64,000 nucleotides of DNA from Escherichia coli (GTDB taxonomy: Bacteria; Pseudomonadota; Gammaproteobacteria; Enterobacterales; Enterobacteriaceae). Within the stretch, counting starts at the first letter, position 1, and every line of letters begins with the position of its first letter. The DNA lies in the NCBI RefSeq assembly GCF_030384885.1, contig NZ_CP128613.1, one strand, 5' to 3'. The notes beneath the pieces are model-generated. The model was not told the DNA's origin, searched no databases, and saw only the letters and a list, made by a program, of their open reading frames with translations. The translations under genes and the position numbers were made by a program. Positions 31,180 to 36,889 of the stretch are shown here, one piece after another.

Positions 31180-31560
31180 ATGAGTAAGGAATATATGAAC
31201 GATGGTTCATTAAGTGAAAAATGGAAATATCGCTTTAGTTTTTATGATCAACATGGCTTTCCTGGATTCTGGGGGGCAACACCAGAATATAAAGCAGCAT
31301 TTAAAGCATTAAAAGTAAGACAACGATTAACTATTCAAATTAATTTCATTGCTTTCTTCTGTTCCTGGATCTATCTATTTGTTCTGGGTTTATGGAAAAA
31401 AGCAATTATAGTTCTATTACTTTGCATTCTATCTCTATTTGTTGGTGCACTAATTGGCGTTAACATTTTGGGAATTGCCGTAGCAGCCTATGTTGCTGTT
31501 AACACGAACAAATGGTTTTATGAGAAAGAGGTAAAAGGGTTAAATACCTGGAGCCTTTGA
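31180..31560 (+). CDS. yigF: Small inner-membrane protein YigF (DUF2628)
   Basis: ORF 31138..31560; internal Met gives MSKEYMNDGSLSEKWKYRFSFYDQHGFPGFWGA... (126 aa). Confidence 0.6.
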   Translation: MSKEYMNDGSLSEKWKYRFSFYDQHGFPGFWGATPEYKAAFKALKVRQRLTIQINFIAFFCSWIYLFVLGLWKKAIIVLLLCILSLFVGALIGVNILGIAVAAYVAVNTNKWFYEKEVKGLNTWSL

Positions 31561-32553: not shown

Positions 32554-32922
32554 GACCGGGACTCCCAATGCTTAAAATATCGGACAGTTCGGTGGGCACA
32601 CAGAAACAAATTGGGTTTCAGACCATTAAACAGCCTGACTCAGCGCGACGGGAAAAATTGAGGTCGCTGACAACCGCTAAGGCTATCAGCAAAAAGGGAT
32701 AGCCTTAGGAGTTGATCCTGAATGACAGGATAGTGAGCCAGTATCTACTGGGTGTGTCCAAGGCGAATGTCCTCTTAGAGTGATCGTGCGCGCATGTTAC
32801 GCCAGCAAAATTTTGCCGTCAACACGCAACAGAACACCACAGAACAATAGTTGAACTTCGCGCTTTTTGGTACTCGTCAAGGTCGCTAACAGGATAAAAA
32901 AATCCCACATCCAGGACCTATA

Positions 32923-33687
32923 ATGGCGCATCGGCTACTCATTGGTAAAGGAATGATCACCTTGAATCTCAAACGGATTTTTCTCGCCCTCACCTTACTT
33001 CCCTTGTTTGCTGTTGCCGCTGATGATTGCGCATTATCAGATCCGACACTGACCGTACAGGCGTATACCGTTAATCCTCAAACAGAGCGGGTGAAAATGT
33101 ACTGGCAAAAAGCCAATGGCGAAGCGTGGGAAACGTTACATGCGCTGCTGACGGATATTAATAGTCAGGGTCAGGTGCAAATGGCGATGAACGGCAGCAT
33201 CTATGATGAAAGCTATGCGCCGCTCGGTTTGTACATCGAAAACGGTCAGCAGAAGGTGGCGTTAAATCTCGCTTCAGGTGAAGGGAATTTCTTTATCCGT
33301 CCTGGCGGTGTGTTTTATGTCGCGGGAGATAAAGTCGGTATCGTTCGTCTGGATGCCTTTAAAACCAGTAAAGAGATTCAGTTCGCGGTGCAGTCAGGGC
33401 CAATGTTGATGGAAAACGGCGTAATTAATCCGCGTATTCATCCCAACGTCGCCTCACGCAAAATTCGTAACGGTGTTGGGATTAATAAACAAGGGAACGC
33501 CGTGTTTTTGTTGAGCCAGCAGGTGACAAATTTTTATGATTTTGCCTGTTATGCCAAAGCGAAACTGAACGTTGAGCAACTGCTTTATCTTGATGGCACG
33601 ATTTCACATATGTATGTGAAAGGCGGGGCAATCCCGTGGCAACGCTATCCTTTTGTTACCATGATTTCCGTCGAGCGGAAAGGTTAA
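32923..33687 (+). CDS. yigE: DUF2233-family secreted protein YigE
   Basis: 254 aa with signal-like N-terminus, recognised as YigE. Confidence 0.8.
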   Translation: MAHRLLIGKGMITLNLKRIFLALTLLPLFAVAADDCALSDPTLTVQAYTVNPQTERVKMYWQKANGEAWETLHALLTDINSQGQVQMAMNGSIYDESYAPLGLYIENGQQKVALNLASGEGNFFIRPGGVFYVAGDKVGIVRLDAFKTSKEIQFAVQSGPMLMENGVINPRIHPNVASRKIRNGVGINKQGNAVFLLSQQVTNFYDFACYAKAKLNVEQLLYLDGTISHMYVKGGAIPWQRYPFVTMISVERKG

Positions 33688-33769
33688 GCATTGTACACTC
33701 GAGGAGGCCAGACAAACTGGGACTGGCTACACAGCTGGAAAATCATCAGATAAATGAAGGGAAACAAAA

Positions 33770-34672
33770 ATGAAAAAAACGCTCGCAACGTTATTTTTAT
33801 TAACGTGTCTGGGATCATCATCCGCCTATGCGGATAACGCTTTGATTTTACAAACTGATTTTAGCCTGAAAGATGGTGCCGTCTCGGCGATGAAAGGGGT
33901 CGCATTCGGCGTTGACCATAATCTTAAAATCTTTGATTTAACACACGAAATTCCACCGTATAACATCTGGGAAGGCGCTTATCGCCTGTATCAGACTGCC
34001 AGTTACTGGCCGCAAGGTTCGGTGTTTGTTAGCGTGGTCGATCCGGGCGTAGGCACTGACCGTAAATCGGTAGTGCTGAAAACCAAAAACGGTCAGTACT
34101 TCGTTTCACCAGATAACGGTACGCTCACTTTGGTGGCACAAACTCTGGGTATTGATAGCGTCCGGGAAATCGATGAAAAAGCTAACCGCCTGAAAGGTTC
34201 TGAAAAGTCATATACCTTCCACGGTCGTGACGTGTATGCCTACACCGGTGCACGCCTGGCTTCCGGGGCGATCACGTTCGAACAGGTGGGGCCAGAGCTT
34301 CCTGCAAAAGTTGTCGAACTTTCTTATCAGAAAGCAAAAGCAACAAAAGGTGAAGTGAAGGGAAATATCCCGATTCTCGATATTCAGTATGGCAACGTCT
34401 GGAGCAATATCAGCGACGAGTTGCTGAATCAGGCAGGAATCAAACTCAACGACACGTTGTGTGTGACCATTTCCGAAGGTTCCCAGAAAAAATACGAAGG
34501 GAAAATGCCGTATGTCGCAAGCTTCGGCGATGTGCCGGAAGGCCAGCCGATGGTGTATCTGAACAGCTTGTTGAATGTTTCCGTGGCGCTGAATATGGAT
34601 AATTTCGCGCAGAAACATCAGGTTGCGTCTGGTGCTGACTGGAATATTGATGTGAAGAAGTGCGCTAAGTAA
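33770..34672 (+). CDS. Secreted DUF62-family protein (SAM hydroxide adenosyltransferase / SAM hydrolase fold) with N-terminal signal peptide
   Basis: 300 aa; signal peptide MKKTLATLFLLTCLGSSSAYA; DUF62 hallmarks ILQTDFSLKDG, VVDPGVGTDR, VSPDNGTLT, TFHGRDVYAYTGARLASG. Confidence 0.75.
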   Translation: MKKTLATLFLLTCLGSSSAYADNALILQTDFSLKDGAVSAMKGVAFGVDHNLKIFDLTHEIPPYNIWEGAYRLYQTASYWPQGSVFVSVVDPGVGTDRKSVVLKTKNGQYFVSPDNGTLTLVAQTLGIDSVREIDEKANRLKGSEKSYTFHGRDVYAYTGARLASGAITFEQVGPELPAKVVELSYQKAKATKGEVKGNIPILDIQYGNVWSNISDELLNQAGIKLNDTLCVTISEGSQKKYEGKMPYVASFGDVPEGQPMVYLNSLLNVSVALNMDNFAQKHQVASGADWNIDVKKCAK

Positions 34673-34681
34673 GGTGCTGAT

Positions 34682-34712
34682 GCGGGATGCGGTGTGGCGC
34701 ACCGCATCCCGC
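34682..34712. terminator. Strong 13-bp-stem hairpin (GCGGGATGCGGTG-TGGCG-CACCGCATCCCGC) between the convergent DUF62 gene and uvrD; likely bidirectional terminator
   Basis: Perfect inverted repeat read from the sequence between two convergent stop codons. Confidence 0.55.
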
Positions 34713-34726
34713 AACGGAATCGTAAA

Positions 34727-36889
34727 TTATACCGTCTCCAGCCGGGCGTAAGCCGCCACCAGCCATTTAATACCCTGGCCCTGAAATGCCACCTGCAAAC
34801 GACTATGTTCGCCGCTGCCTTCCATATTGACGATAGTCCCTTCACCAAACTTGGCGTGTCGTACGCGCTGGCCGAGTTTGTAACCGCTGTCGTTCTCAAC
34901 CATCGGCGTACCCATACGCTGATGGCTGACCGGGCGGCTTACCGTAGCGCGTAAACGCACCTCTTCCACACACTCTTCCGGCAACTCGCCAATAAAACGC
35001 GACGGGCGATGGTAAACCTCTTTGCCATACAGACGCCGGGTTTCCGCGTAGGTCAGCGTCAGTTTCTGCATCGCGCGGGTTACGCCAACGTAGGCCAGAC
35101 GGCGTTCTTCTTCCAGACGCCCGCCTTCATCCAGCGACATCTGGCTTGGGAACATGCCCTCTTCCATACCGACAATAAACACCTGCGGGAATTCCAGACC
35201 TTTCGCCGAGTGTAGCGTCATCAGCTGTACCGCATCCTGCCAGGTATCCGCCTGCCCTTCACCTGCTTCCAGTGCCGCATGGGAGAGGAACGCCTGCAGC
35301 GGCATTAAATCTTCGTCTTCTTCGTTGTAGCTGAACTGGCGCGTTGCCGTCACCAGTTCCTCTAAGTTTTCGATACGCGTCTGGCCTTTTTCGCCCTTCT
35401 CCTGCTCGTACATGGTGCGCAGGCCGGAGTCTTTAATTACCCGATCAGTCTGTACATGCAGCGGCATATCGGCAGTTTCTTGCGCTAAGGCGTCGATCAG
35501 TTCCATAAACCGTTGCAAAGCGCTGGCAGCACGTCCGGCGAGGGCTTTTTCCTGCAACAGTTCACGACATGCCTGCCAGAGTGTTAACTGGCGATCGCGC
35601 GATGTCTGACGTACCACGTCCAGCGTCCGGTCACCAATACCCCGCGTTGGCGTATTGACCACACGCTCAAAGGCCGCGTCGTCGTTACGGTTGGCAATCA
35701 GGCGCAGATACGAGAGCGCATCTTTGATTTCCTGGCGTTCGAAGAAGCGCATCCCGCCATAAATACGGTACGGCATACTGGCTTGTAATAACGCCTCTTC
35801 CAGTACACGCGACTGGGCATTGCTGCGATAGAGAATGGCGCACTCGGCGAGCGCCCCGCCGTTATCCTGCCAGGTCTTGATACGGTTAACCACAAAACGC
35901 GCTTCGTCGAGTTCGTTAAAAGCGCAATAGAGGGAAATCGGCTCACCGTCCGCGCCATCGGTCCACAACTTTTTACCCAAACGCCCGTTGTTGTTTTCAA
36001 TCAGGGCGTTCGCCGCGCTCAGAATGTTGCTAGTGGAGCGGTAGTTTTGCTCCAGACGAATGGTTTCGGCACCGGGGAAATCATTGAGGAAACGCTGAAT
36101 ATTCTCTACCTGCGCCCCACGCCAGCCGTAGATTGACTGGTCGTCATCGCCAACGATCATCACTTTGCCAGTATCGCCCGCCAGCAGGCGGATCCACGCA
36201 TACTGAATGTTGTTGGTATCCTGGAATTCGTCTACCAGGATATTGGTAAAACGTTCGCGGTAGTGTTGCAGGATATGCGGCTTGTTAAGCCACAGTTCGT
36301 GGGCGCGTAGCAGTAGTTCAGCGAAGTCTACCAGGCCCGCGCGGTCGCACGCTTCCTGATACGCCTGGTACACCTTCTGCCAGGTCTGCTCCACCGGATT
36401 ACCGTAGCTTTGAATATGATGCGGACGCAGCCCTTCATCTTTCTGGCTGTTGATGTACCACATTGCCTGGCGCGGCGGCCACTGCTTCTCGTCGAGGTTC
36501 ATGGCTTTGATCAGACGCTTAAGCAGGCGCAGCTGGTCTTCGCTGTCGAGGATCTGGAAATCCTGCGGCAGGTTGGCGTCCATATGGTGCGCACGCAGCA
36601 GACGGTGTGCCAGCCCGTGGAAAGTGCCGACCCACATACCGCCCTGACTGGTGCCCATCAGTTGCCCGATACGATGGCGCATTTCCGCCGCCGCTTTGTT
36701 GGTAAATGTCACCGCCATAATCGAGTACGGCGAGCAGTTTTCCACGCTCATCAGCCAGGCGATACGATGCACCAGTACGCGCGTCTTACCACTGCCCGCG
36801 CCCGCCAGCACCAGAAGGTTGCTGCGTGGCGCGGCCACCGCTTCGCGCTGTTTGTCATTAAGGCTGTCGAGCAGGTAAGAAACGTCCAT
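34727..36889 (-). CDS. uvrD: DNA helicase II UvrD
   Basis: ORF 34727..37075; start trimmed to MDVSYLLDSLNDKQREAVAAPRSNLLVLAGAGSGKTRVL (720 aa). Confidence 0.95.
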   Translation of the reverse strand: MDVSYLLDSLNDKQREAVAAPRSNLLVLAGAGSGKTRVLVHRIAWLMSVENCSPYSIMAVTFTNKAAAEMRHRIGQLMGTSQGGMWVGTFHGLAHRLLRAHHMDANLPQDFQILDSEDQLRLLKRLIKAMNLDEKQWPPRQAMWYINSQKDEGLRPHHIQSYGNPVEQTWQKVYQAYQEACDRAGLVDFAELLLRAHELWLNKPHILQHYRERFTNILVDEFQDTNNIQYAWIRLLAGDTGKVMIVGDDDQSIYGWRGAQVENIQRFLNDFPGAETIRLEQNYRSTSNILSAANALIENNNGRLGKKLWTDGADGEPISLYCAFNELDEARFVVNRIKTWQDNGGALAECAILYRSNAQSRVLEEALLQASMPYRIYGGMRFFERQEIKDALSYLRLIANRNDDAAFERVVNTPTRGIGDRTLDVVRQTSRDRQLTLWQACRELLQEKALAGRAASALQRFMELIDALAQETADMPLHVQTDRVIKDSGLRTMYEQEKGEKGQTRIENLEELVTATRQFSYNEEDEDLMPLQAFLSHAALEAGEGQADTWQDAVQLMTLHSAKGLEFPQVFIVGMEEGMFPSQMSLDEGGRLEEERRLAYVGVTRAMQKLTLTYAETRRLYGKEVYHRPSRFIGELPEECVEEVRLRATVSRPVSHQRMGTPMVENDSGYKLGQRVRHAKFGEGTIVNMEGSGEHSRLQVAFQGQGIKWLVAAYARLETV

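Follow-up and report, generated by a model that had tools for sequence, protein, structure and literature searches.

The closest described relatives of the gene treated here are the (R)-S-adenosylmethionine (SAM) hydrolases of the DUF62 family, namely PH0463 of P. horikoshii (structures 1wu8 and 2wr8), SaDUF62 and StDUF62 of Salinispora, MJ1651 of M. jannaschii and the T. maritima protein of structure 2zbu. Hydrolases of this subgroup are homotrimers, their active sites lying where subunits meet. The chemistry of the family is a nucleophilic substitution (SN2) at C5' of SAM with L-methionine as the leaving group, and an Asp-Arg-His triad, confined to the DUF62 hydrolases, activates the water molecule acting as nucleophile (review PMC10491745). 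The biological role of DUF62 proteins is debated, the current view being that these leaderless, cytoplasmic enzymes clear the inactive (R,S)-SAM epimer. The gene in question lies at positions 33770-34672 (+) of a stretch of 64,000 nucleotides from E. coli (RefSeq assembly GCF_030384885.1, contig NZ_CP128613.1), referred to below as the window. Its product has the same domains, fold and triad as these hydrolases, at 30-35% identity, and the same chemistry (SAM + water giving adenosine + L-methionine) would be expected of it. Unlike them, it carries a predicted cleavable Sec signal and a clade-specific cysteine pair, and it scores below the cut-offs of the corresponding equivalog models. The reading favoured here, to which a probability of about 0.45-0.5 is given, is that the enzyme would hydrolyse environmental SAM in the periplasm to adenosine and methionine for uptake.

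Other systems resemble it in part. The chlorinase SalL and the fluorinases (FlA) share the fold and the overall SAM-binding scaffold with the E. coli protein, but they lack the triad, use a halide as nucleophile, are cytoplasmic and belong to biosynthetic gene clusters. As regards physiology, UshA, CpdB and AphA are the periplasmic nucleotide-scavenging hydrolases of E. coli, and the logic proposed for the present enzyme would be shared with them, i.e. a Sec-exported hydrolase making an impermeant solute into a nucleoside and a second usable product; the folds, however, are unrelated, and these enzymes hydrolyse phosphoesters instead of promoting an SN2 reaction at a sulfonium C5'. Finally, the SAMase of phage T3 type (SAM lyase) also destroys SAM, but it has an unrelated fold, gives methylthioadenosine and homoserine lactone as products (PMC7877911) and works in the cytoplasm against restriction.

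The open reading frame (ORF) starts with ATG, encodes 300 amino acids and contains the four motifs TDFSLKDG, VVDPGVGTDR, SPDNGTLT and TFHGRDVYAYTG, on which an earlier reading, made from the letters of the DNA (the sequence-only reading), had based its assignment to DUF62. The features that bear on family and catalytic type are the following:

33770..34672, + strand: SAM hydroxide adenosyltransferase-family coding sequence, complete, 300 codons plus stop (ORF list, Pfam, RefSeq WP_000751625.1)
33845..34291, + strand: SAM_HAT_N domain (PF01887), amino acids 26-174 (Pfam 3.6e-53, 179.7 bits against a gathering cut-off of 26.3)
34361..34642, + strand: SAM_HAT_C domain (PF20257), amino acids 198-291 (Pfam 1.4e-18, 67.4 bits against a gathering cut-off of 25.5)
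34040..34042, + strand: Asp91 codon GAT, triad residue, Tyr in SalL (alignment)
34061..34063, + strand: Arg98 codon CGT, triad residue, Thr in SalL (alignment)
34220..34222, + strand: His151 codon CAC, triad residue, Tyr in SalL and Phe in the Synergistota branch (alignment)

A sequence search of the PDB returned only DUF62-fold proteins, the best match being 2zbu of T. maritima (4.7e-44), followed by the chlorinase SalL (~1e-35), PH0463 (~1e-33) and the fluorinases (~1e-22). An AlphaFold monomer model, built from a 70-sequence alignment (mean predicted local distance difference test, pLDDT, 92.3), was compared with solved DUF62 structures by Foldseek and gave target-normalised TM scores of 0.80-0.91, with 0.90 for both 2zbu and SalL and 0.86-0.87 for PH0463 (1wu8, 2wr8). 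The triad D91/R98/H151 is kept in 65 of 70 exported-clade members as well as in 2zbu, while SalL has Y/T/Y. The protein has also kept each residue that does not vary among exported members, leaderless relatives and solved structures (D30, the D91-P-G-V-G motif, P114-D-N-G, G152-R-D and G208). Moreover, the fluorinase model TIGR04507 gives a partial match only, with a score of 83.6 against a cut-off of 400. Thus, since the triad is present and the fluorinase score falls far below its cut-off, the protein is, by its sequence, a hydrolase-type member of the DUF62 / SAM hydroxide adenosyltransferase family; it is not filed as an equivalog of the characterised enzymes. A separate observation concerns the Synergistota homologues (loci L045, L050, L056, L058 and L067), in which Phe takes the place of His151 (YTFFGRD) and Asp91 and Arg98 are kept, so that this branch may be a mechanistic variant.

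The N-terminal part of the protein places it, very probably, outside the cytoplasm. The features concerned are:

33770..33832, + strand: predicted Sec / signal peptidase I signal peptide, amino acids 1-21, MKKTLATLFLLTCLGSSSAYA (n/h/c rules, homologue comparison, model)
33833..34669, + strand: predicted mature periplasmic protein, amino acids 22-300 (model, 2zbu alignment)
34460..34462, + strand: Cys231 codon, one half of a putative periplasmic disulfide (covariation with the C-terminal Cys)
34661..34663, + strand: Cys298 codon (KKC motif), other half of the putative disulfide (covariation with Cys231)

The signal-peptide call combines rule-based features with comparative evidence. An n-region MKK (+2) is followed by a 12-residue hydrophobic core, TLATLFLLTCLG, within the 7-15 residues expected of a Sec signal, and by the c-region SSSAYA, with cleavage predicted at AYA|DN and Ala at both -3 and -1. 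The AlphaFold model shows residues 1-20, at low confidence, as a helix apart from the rest and places the first beta-strand (amino acids 24-29) 3 residues past the predicted cleavage site. Residue 5 of 2zbu aligns opposite residue 28 of the query, and the solved relatives matched by sequence all align from within their first ~15 residues, so that none has a presequence. Further, a survey was made of 71 closest homologues (64 of the 80 loci returned by a scan of one genome per species, with near-duplicate Aeromonas species dropped, plus 7 Escherichia and Helicobacter alleles), in which a presequence was counted as signal-like if its n-region was net positive, its Kyte-Doolittle value reached 2.0 or more in the best 8-residue stretch and 12 or more successive residues were uncharged. 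Such a presequence was found in 70 of the 71, occupying 20-48 amino acids ahead of the conserved 'ALV-QTDFG' with which the domain begins, a count in which start-codon choice favoured signal-like starts, most ORFs having one plausible ATG only. Most of these presequences end in A-x-A (AFA|NE, ASA|K, AQA|Q), and a few from Bacteroidota have a lipobox instead. They are unrelated in sequence between phyla and conserve the physicochemical pattern alone, which is what selection for export predicts.

Cysteine content points in the same direction. C231 and C298 occur together in 24 of 24 sequences of a proteobacterial subclade (Escherichia, Helicobacter, Aeromonas, Edwardsiella, Pasteurellaceae, Thorsellia, metagenome-assembled genomes (MAGs) of Neisseriales/Burkholderiales and one Desulfobacterales MAG), where they are the only two cysteines of the mature protein, and both are absent elsewhere. 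Exported members have on average 1.37 cysteines against 3.61 (range 0-11) in cytoplasmic-type ones, and most exported members outside the subclade have none; paired cysteines together with cysteine depletion are what one would expect if a disulfide forms in the periplasm and exported proteins avoid cysteine. As to other export routes, a lipoprotein was rejected, since in the candidate box, LLTC, Thr stands at -1, where a lipobox ([LVI][ASTVI][GAS]C) has Gly, Ala or Ser, and since Cys13 is not conserved (His in H. acinonychis, Gln in H. pylori SA213A), and no twin-arginine motif was found in the E. coli, Helicobacter or Aeromonas presequences.

The gene is, on this comparative evidence, a member of a large branch of predicted exported proteins spanning at least 10 phyla, mostly diderm. 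A HMMER search of 1.84 billion cluster representatives (50% identity) yielded 8752 family members at E <= 1e-3; among the best 150 representatives 76 were full-length, and these were classified by a BLAST-anchored scheme. The N-termini of these 76 nearest full-length clusters were of signal or lipoprotein type in 46 cases, started at the domain in 28 and were unclear in 2, the export state being mostly coherent within clades. Signal-bearing carriers belong to Proteobacteria, Campylobacterota, Bacteroidota, Verrucomicrobiota, Planctomycetota, Synergistota, Thermotogota, Fusobacteriota, Ignavibacteriota, Desulfobacterota and the monoderm Tissierellia, and most of them are free-living environmental bacteria. 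In some exported homologues the protein is joined to a further hydrolase domain or to an inhibitor domain (Peptidase_M15, alpha/beta-hydrolase, emfourin in P0161, P0206 and P0240, and Y_phosphatase3), which also speaks for export. In Fervidobacterium MAGs (L074:5971-7887 and L082:5953-7872) a signal, DUF62, a second SAM_HAT_C and a Y_phosphatase3 domain with the HCxxGxxR motif are joined in a single protein.

These results bear differently on the several claims of the sequence-only reading. Its DUF62 assignment stands, with both Pfam domains, the four motifs and a TM score of 0.90 to solved structures, and its classical Sec signal peptide is, as a prediction, upheld by the n/h/c regions, the AYA|D site and the homologous presequences. 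The likeness to fluorinases and chlorinases that it pointed out holds for the fold and not for the catalytic type. It had also described the family as otherwise cytoplasmic, which the 46 signal-bearing clusters contradict, only the characterised or crystallised members being cytoplasmic. An exported member, which it considered unusual, is common within the family, although the literature searched does not address the matter: full-text searches returned no paper on exported DUF62 proteins, and in the two most recent enzymology papers on DUF62 the words 'signal', 'periplasm' and 'secret' do not occur. The gene itself is not new, being already in RefSeq under a generic family name; what is new is its predicted compartment and the recognition that the exported form makes up a large branch, conserved and spread over many phyla.

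Directly below E. coli and Shigella in the ranking of matches come proteins of H. pylori and H. acinonychis, which are of equal length, show no insertions or deletions and are 90-91% identical in amino acids; the H. pylori orthologue is HP0709 (UniProt O25413). Comparison of window positions 33770-34672 with the H. pylori locus L003:8001-8903 gives 91.4% identity for the protein and 84.9% for the DNA, with 67% at third positions. Between E. coli and Helicobacter synonymous divergence (dS) is ~0.85-1.0 and non-synonymous divergence (dN) ~0.05-0.06, against a dS of 0.42 between H. pylori and H. acinonychis. To judge from the resulting dN/dS of 0.05-0.07, and of 0.03-0.12 within Escherichia (dS 0.10-0.31 among alleles), the function of the gene is maintained by purifying selection. 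An identity of 91% is judged anomalous for E. coli and H. pylori proteins; no other homologous gene pair that could serve as a yardstick was found between the window and the H. pylori loci. In complete H. pylori genomes the order is flgR, uvrA, hopE, rsmH, HP0708, HP0709, a hom-family outer-membrane protein gene or an HD-domain gene, rpoN and dnaX, and H. acinonychis Sheeba carries the gene at the same site (L088:6001-6903).

Among species-representative genomes there is a gap between Escherichia and Helicobacter, at 89-99% identity, and Aeromonas, Edwardsiella, Pasteurellaceae and Neisseriales, at 65-76%; Salmonella, Klebsiella, Citrobacter and other Helicobacter are not found among the best 80 of 124 confirmed relatives that were covered by the one-genome-per-species locus scan. 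Neighbour-joining of the mature domains groups Escherichia (95% bootstrap) and Helicobacter (98%) as sisters, joint support being 100%. The pair lies within Gammaproteobacteria, and the next branches are those of Edwardsiella, Pasteurellaceae and Aeromonas. Furthermore, recQ adjoins the gene in Aeromonas and Edwardsiella and lies ~5 kb away in E. coli. The GC content of the E. coli gene (47.5%) is close to that of neighbouring yigE (47.1%), whereas the H. pylori copy (42.9%) stands in flanks of 38%.

In H. pylori the gene is part of a 1.2-kb unit bracketed by a direct repeat of ~220 bp (L003:7708-7919 and L003:8909-9129, 71-81% identical), which is the promoter and leader of the gene downstream of HP0709, taken here to be the hom-family outer-membrane protein gene HP0710. 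The upstream copy of the repeat keeps a decayed start of that gene (ACCATAAAAAATATTCAC vs ACCATGAGAAAACTATTCAT), and homology to E. coli begins ~25 bp before the ATG and ends 9 bp past the stop codon. In H. acinonychis and H. pylori SA213A the leader is fused directly to the gene, which gives a start MRKT and not MKKT. Taken together, the comparisons indicate an inter-phylum horizontal transfer between the Escherichia and H. pylori lineages. The gammaproteobacterial nesting, the loose synteny with recQ, the GC contrast and the insertion scar in H. pylori suggest that the direction was probably from the Escherichia lineage, or a very close enterobacterium, to the common ancestor of H. pylori and H. 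acinonychis, although an unsampled third donor may have been involved. Contamination was rejected as a source of the H. pylori matches since these differ by 15% in nucleotides, stand between native flanks in complete genomes and occur in thousands of strains.

A search for a vehicle yielded neither plasmid nor phage. The 'plasmid' matches in PLSDB are mislabelled 4.9-Mb chromosomes of E. coli and Aeromonas, and 'Helicobacter phage Pt11444_1' (L094, PQ159899.1) is an over-extended prophage call; its 32 kb hold chromosomal H. pylori genes in the order of L003, including HP0709, with mraW annotated as such and the others renamed or hypothetical. Literature searches, HP0709 synonyms included, returned no report of an Escherichia-Helicobacter transfer, and comparisons relying on K-12 would miss it, since K-12 is without the gene. 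The orthologues in Helicobacter and E. coli/Shigella have been variously annotated as 'acetolactate synthase' and 'adenosyl-chloride synthase (salL)'; both are misannotations, being at odds with the domains found and with the triad of the hydrolases. The H. pylori gene has nevertheless appeared in several data sets. In a genome-wide association study (GWAS) of gastric cancer, a non-synonymous single-nucleotide polymorphism (SNP) of HP0709 was among the top matches (gene position 145, with D as the 'safe' and N as the 'risk' genotype), and its authors could not interpret HP0709 owing to conflicting annotations (PMC6090961). Patients make antibodies to HP0709 (PMC11394471), from which its expression in vivo follows. 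In addition, HP0709, annotated there as 'salL', was up 2.87-fold in H. pylori biofilm, the methionine permease gene metI being up 2.18-fold in the same table (PMC6212823), and the protein has been detected in outer-membrane vesicles (PMC8756444). The vesicle detection and the antibodies bear indirectly on export as well.

Within E. coli the gene is present in 2413 of 5426 complete genomes, always at the same site; in the window it stands between yigE and uvrD, the position that the sequence-only reading had given and that the coordinates bear out (yigE at 32923-33687, +; convergent uvrD at 34727-36889, -). That reading knew of no such gene in K-12, and rightly so: MG1655 has a 146-bp spacer containing repetitive extragenic palindromic (REP) sequence in its place. 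The segment that varies can be given as follows:

33688..34680, strand not assigned: presence/absence segment in E. coli, approximate (genome comparison)

Instead of this segment, ~100 bp of unrelated spacer with REP sequence are found in K-12 and in 3012 other complete genomes. In E. coli the SAM hydrolase gene is an old but dispensable accessory gene.

If the enzyme scavenges SAM, the following sequence of events may be envisaged. The precursor would be exported by Sec and cleaved by signal peptidase I at AYA|D, and a mature protein of ~31 kDa would fold in the periplasm, where the putative C231-C298 disulfide probably stabilises it. Activated by Asp91, Arg98 and His151, a water molecule would attack C5' of an adenosyl-sulfonium compound in an SN2 reaction. 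As the residues invariant across the family are all retained, the simplest candidate is SAM or a closely similar compound of this type; the likeliest substrate would be SAM itself, in either sulfonium epimer, entering from outside via porins. SAM (~400 Da) is small enough for porins and is not known to be transported across the inner membrane of E. coli, while adenosine and methionine each have dedicated importers. The products, adenosine and L-methionine, would then be taken up by the ordinary nucleoside and methionine transporters, the enzyme acting as a periplasmic scavenger that turns an impermeant metabolite into two importable nutrients. The statement of the sequence-only reading that SAM is not expected in the periplasm was thus too strong, porin permeability making an exogenous substrate plausible. 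Neither E. coli nor H. pylori is known to have a periplasmic SAM-dependent metabolism in need of (R)-SAM repair, and for this reason the clearing of the inactive (R,S) epimer proposed for the cytoplasmic hydrolases would not carry over; in a compartment without such metabolism to protect, the biological role must be expected to differ. Scavenging would fit H. pylori particularly well, since this bacterium is a purine auxotroph that also requires methionine. It has no de novo purine synthesis, takes up adenosine via NupC and scavenges purines by means of the surface nuclease NucT (PMC13328217). An Escherichia-lineage copy would have entered the ancestor of H. pylori and H. acinonychis and been conserved as HP0709 under the duplicated promoter and leader of the downstream gene. 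This conditional sense applies to the export of the protein and its cleavage, to the disulfide, to the choice of SAM as substrate, to scavenging and to the direction in which the gene was transferred.

Several points weigh against this proposal. At neutral pH SAM is a labile compound. Against the NCBIfam models for (R)-SAM hydrolase equivalogs the protein falls far short of the cut-offs (131.3 vs 350 for NF058624 and 117.3 vs 470 for NF053629), so its specificity may differ from that of the characterised DUF62 enzymes, and the Phe of Synergistota at His151 means that the exported members need not all be the same kind of hydrolase. When ORFs within 4.5 kb were clustered over 65 loci, no neighbour conserved across phyla was found, and thus no operon-based clue to function; synteny was lineage-specific only (recQ in Aeromonas and Edwardsiella, RNase T2 in Aeromonas, a 4HBT thioesterase in Chitinophaga), and a conserved adjacent transporter, nucleoside or methionine gene was found in no lineage among the same loci. 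The 82-bp spacer between yigE and the gene shows no sigma-70 consensus promoter; the gene may therefore be co-transcribed with yigE or have a weak promoter of its own. As for the location of HP0709, the vesicle proteome in which it was detected includes ribosomal proteins and other cytoplasmic contaminants (PMC8756444), which makes that detection weak evidence. Finally, 56% of complete E. coli genomes lack the gene, and at least one strain, HS-02, has at the yigE/uvrD site (L087:4915-5772) a decayed pseudogene with 80.6% nucleotide identity, a frameshift and an internal stop, so that loss has occurred by decay too and not by deletion alone. Any benefit of the gene in E. coli is therefore conditional; the species is, moreover, prototrophic.

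Among the alternatives, an exported enzyme with a physiological substrate other than SAM, serving detoxification or interference rather than nutrition, is unlikely, though not far-fetched. Its substrate could be some other 5'-sulfonium, or otherwise activated, adenosine compound encountered outside the cell, for example decarboxylated SAM, a SAM-derived natural product or toxin, or a metabolite of a competitor. Scores well under both (R)-SAM hydrolase cut-offs and the lack of linkage to uptake genes would agree with this, as would the positions that are fixed in the exported clade and variable in cytoplasmic-type relatives, which include K42, W67, R72, Q75, Y186, P201, N209 and W211; the accessory and sometimes pseudogenised state of the gene in E. 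coli would, for its part, suit a niche-specific substrate. Yet the triad and the family-wide invariant residues are retained, no candidate compound is known, and a distribution from soil Bacteroidota to gastric Helicobacter argues for a substrate that is ubiquitous. Improbable to a greater degree is a role as host-interaction factor in host-associated carriers, notably H. pylori, either by producing immunosuppressive extracellular adenosine or by depleting mucosal SAM. The detection of HP0709 in outer-membrane vesicles (PMC8756444), its seroreactivity in patients (PMC11394471), its SNP in the gastric-cancer GWAS (PMC6090961) and its status as an H. pylori core gene under strong purifying selection after horizontal acquisition could all be read in this way, but the vesicle list has cytoplasmic contaminants, the GWAS authors could not interpret the gene, and such a role cannot be ancestral, most carriers being free-living in the environment.

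A different objection is that the N-terminus might be no working signal, the protein being then cytoplasmic, or anchored in the membrane facing inward, and a hydrolase clearing (R,S)-SAM damage. All characterised DUF62 hydrolases are indeed cytoplasmic and (R)-SAM-selective (PMC10491745), but the n/h/c presequence of 70 of 71 homologues in at least 10 phyla, kept through complete turnover of its sequence, the covarying cysteine pair and the cysteine depletion typical of exported proteins, the distance of only ~3 residues from the A-x-A site to the first beta-strand, and the lipoboxes that replace it in some homologues make this very improbable. Least credible of all is a SAM-dependent halogenase (chlorinase or fluorinase), as the 'salL, adenosyl-chloride synthase' annotations would have it. 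Apart from the fold common to SalL and FlA, this draws on a Prokka-type annotation, used in PMC6212823 and PMC6090961; with D/R/H where SalL has Y/T/Y, a partial match to TIGR04507 far under its cut-off and no halometabolite gene cluster nearby, it is effectively refuted, the active-site residues being decisive.

If hydrolysis of extracellular SAM is retained as the preferred reading, its consequences reach beyond E. coli. A large exported branch with an intact triad cannot serve cytoplasmic epimer clearance, and an extracellular-SAM hypothesis is open to simple assays. For HP0709, the misleading 'acetolactate synthase' and 'adenosyl-chloride synthase' labels are corrected, and an uninterpreted match of GWAS and serology gains a concrete biochemical hypothesis; moreover, a clean inter-phylum transfer between the Escherichia and H. 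pylori lineages is documented in which the insertion scar is still visible. A wider and rather doubtful extension would be that extracytoplasmic cleavage of SAM is widespread and unrecognised, the exported DUF62 branch harvesting environmental or host SAM as a source of purine and of methionine/sulfur, and that H. pylori captured it as HP0709 from a gut bacterium of the Escherichia lineage. Were this true, extracellular SAM would be a contested nutrient at mucosal surfaces, and 'metabolite repair' would be only half of DUF62 biology.

Some minor features of the locus complete the description:

33756..33762, + strand: Shine-Dalgarno-like GAAGGGA, 7 nt 5' of the ATG (sequence reading)
34670..34724, strand not assigned: REP-like inverted repeat between the SAM hydrolase gene and convergent uvrD (25-nt arms, 80% complementary)

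The inverted repeat has a perfect 13-bp core (34682-34694 / 34700-34712), and the empty site of K-12 keeps part of its right arm; a canonical intrinsic terminator was rejected, as no T-run follows it. The locus is 100% identical to that of E. coli strain 2013C-4282, where PGAP names the product 'SAM hydrolase/SAM-dependent halogenase family protein' (WP_000751625.1). An origin from a defence system or phage was also rejected, the protein having 0 PADLOC and 0 PHROGs matches.

Upstream, yigE (32923-33687, +) has a signal-like N-terminus (…KRIFLALTLLPLFAVAADD) and matches PF09992, NAGPA 'phosphodiester glycosidase' (2.4e-18), and is thus a second uncharacterised, apparently exported hydrolase of the locus. 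An obligate functional coupling of the two genes was rejected, since K-12 has yigE without the SAM hydrolase gene, strain 2014C-4587 shows the reverse and no other taxon pairs both. In 2014C-4587 (L093, cf. window 32705-34672) the order is ysgD, SAM hydrolase gene, uvrD, with yigE absent, so that the two adjacent genes for exported proteins vary independently, in opposite arrangements in this strain and in K-12. Further upstream, the annotation of the identical RefSeq genome lists yigF (DUF2628; 31181-31560, +) as a pseudogene with a frameshift, and the HS-02 copy has an internal stop. Finally, the last 300 nt of uvrD (34727-35026) show a dS of 0.08-0.55 between E. coli strains with zero amino-acid changes, as compared with 0.02-0.10 for the 3' end of yigE and 0.10-0.21 for the SAM hydrolase gene, as if a local hotspot of imported DNA or old alleles surrounded the presence/absence polymorphism.

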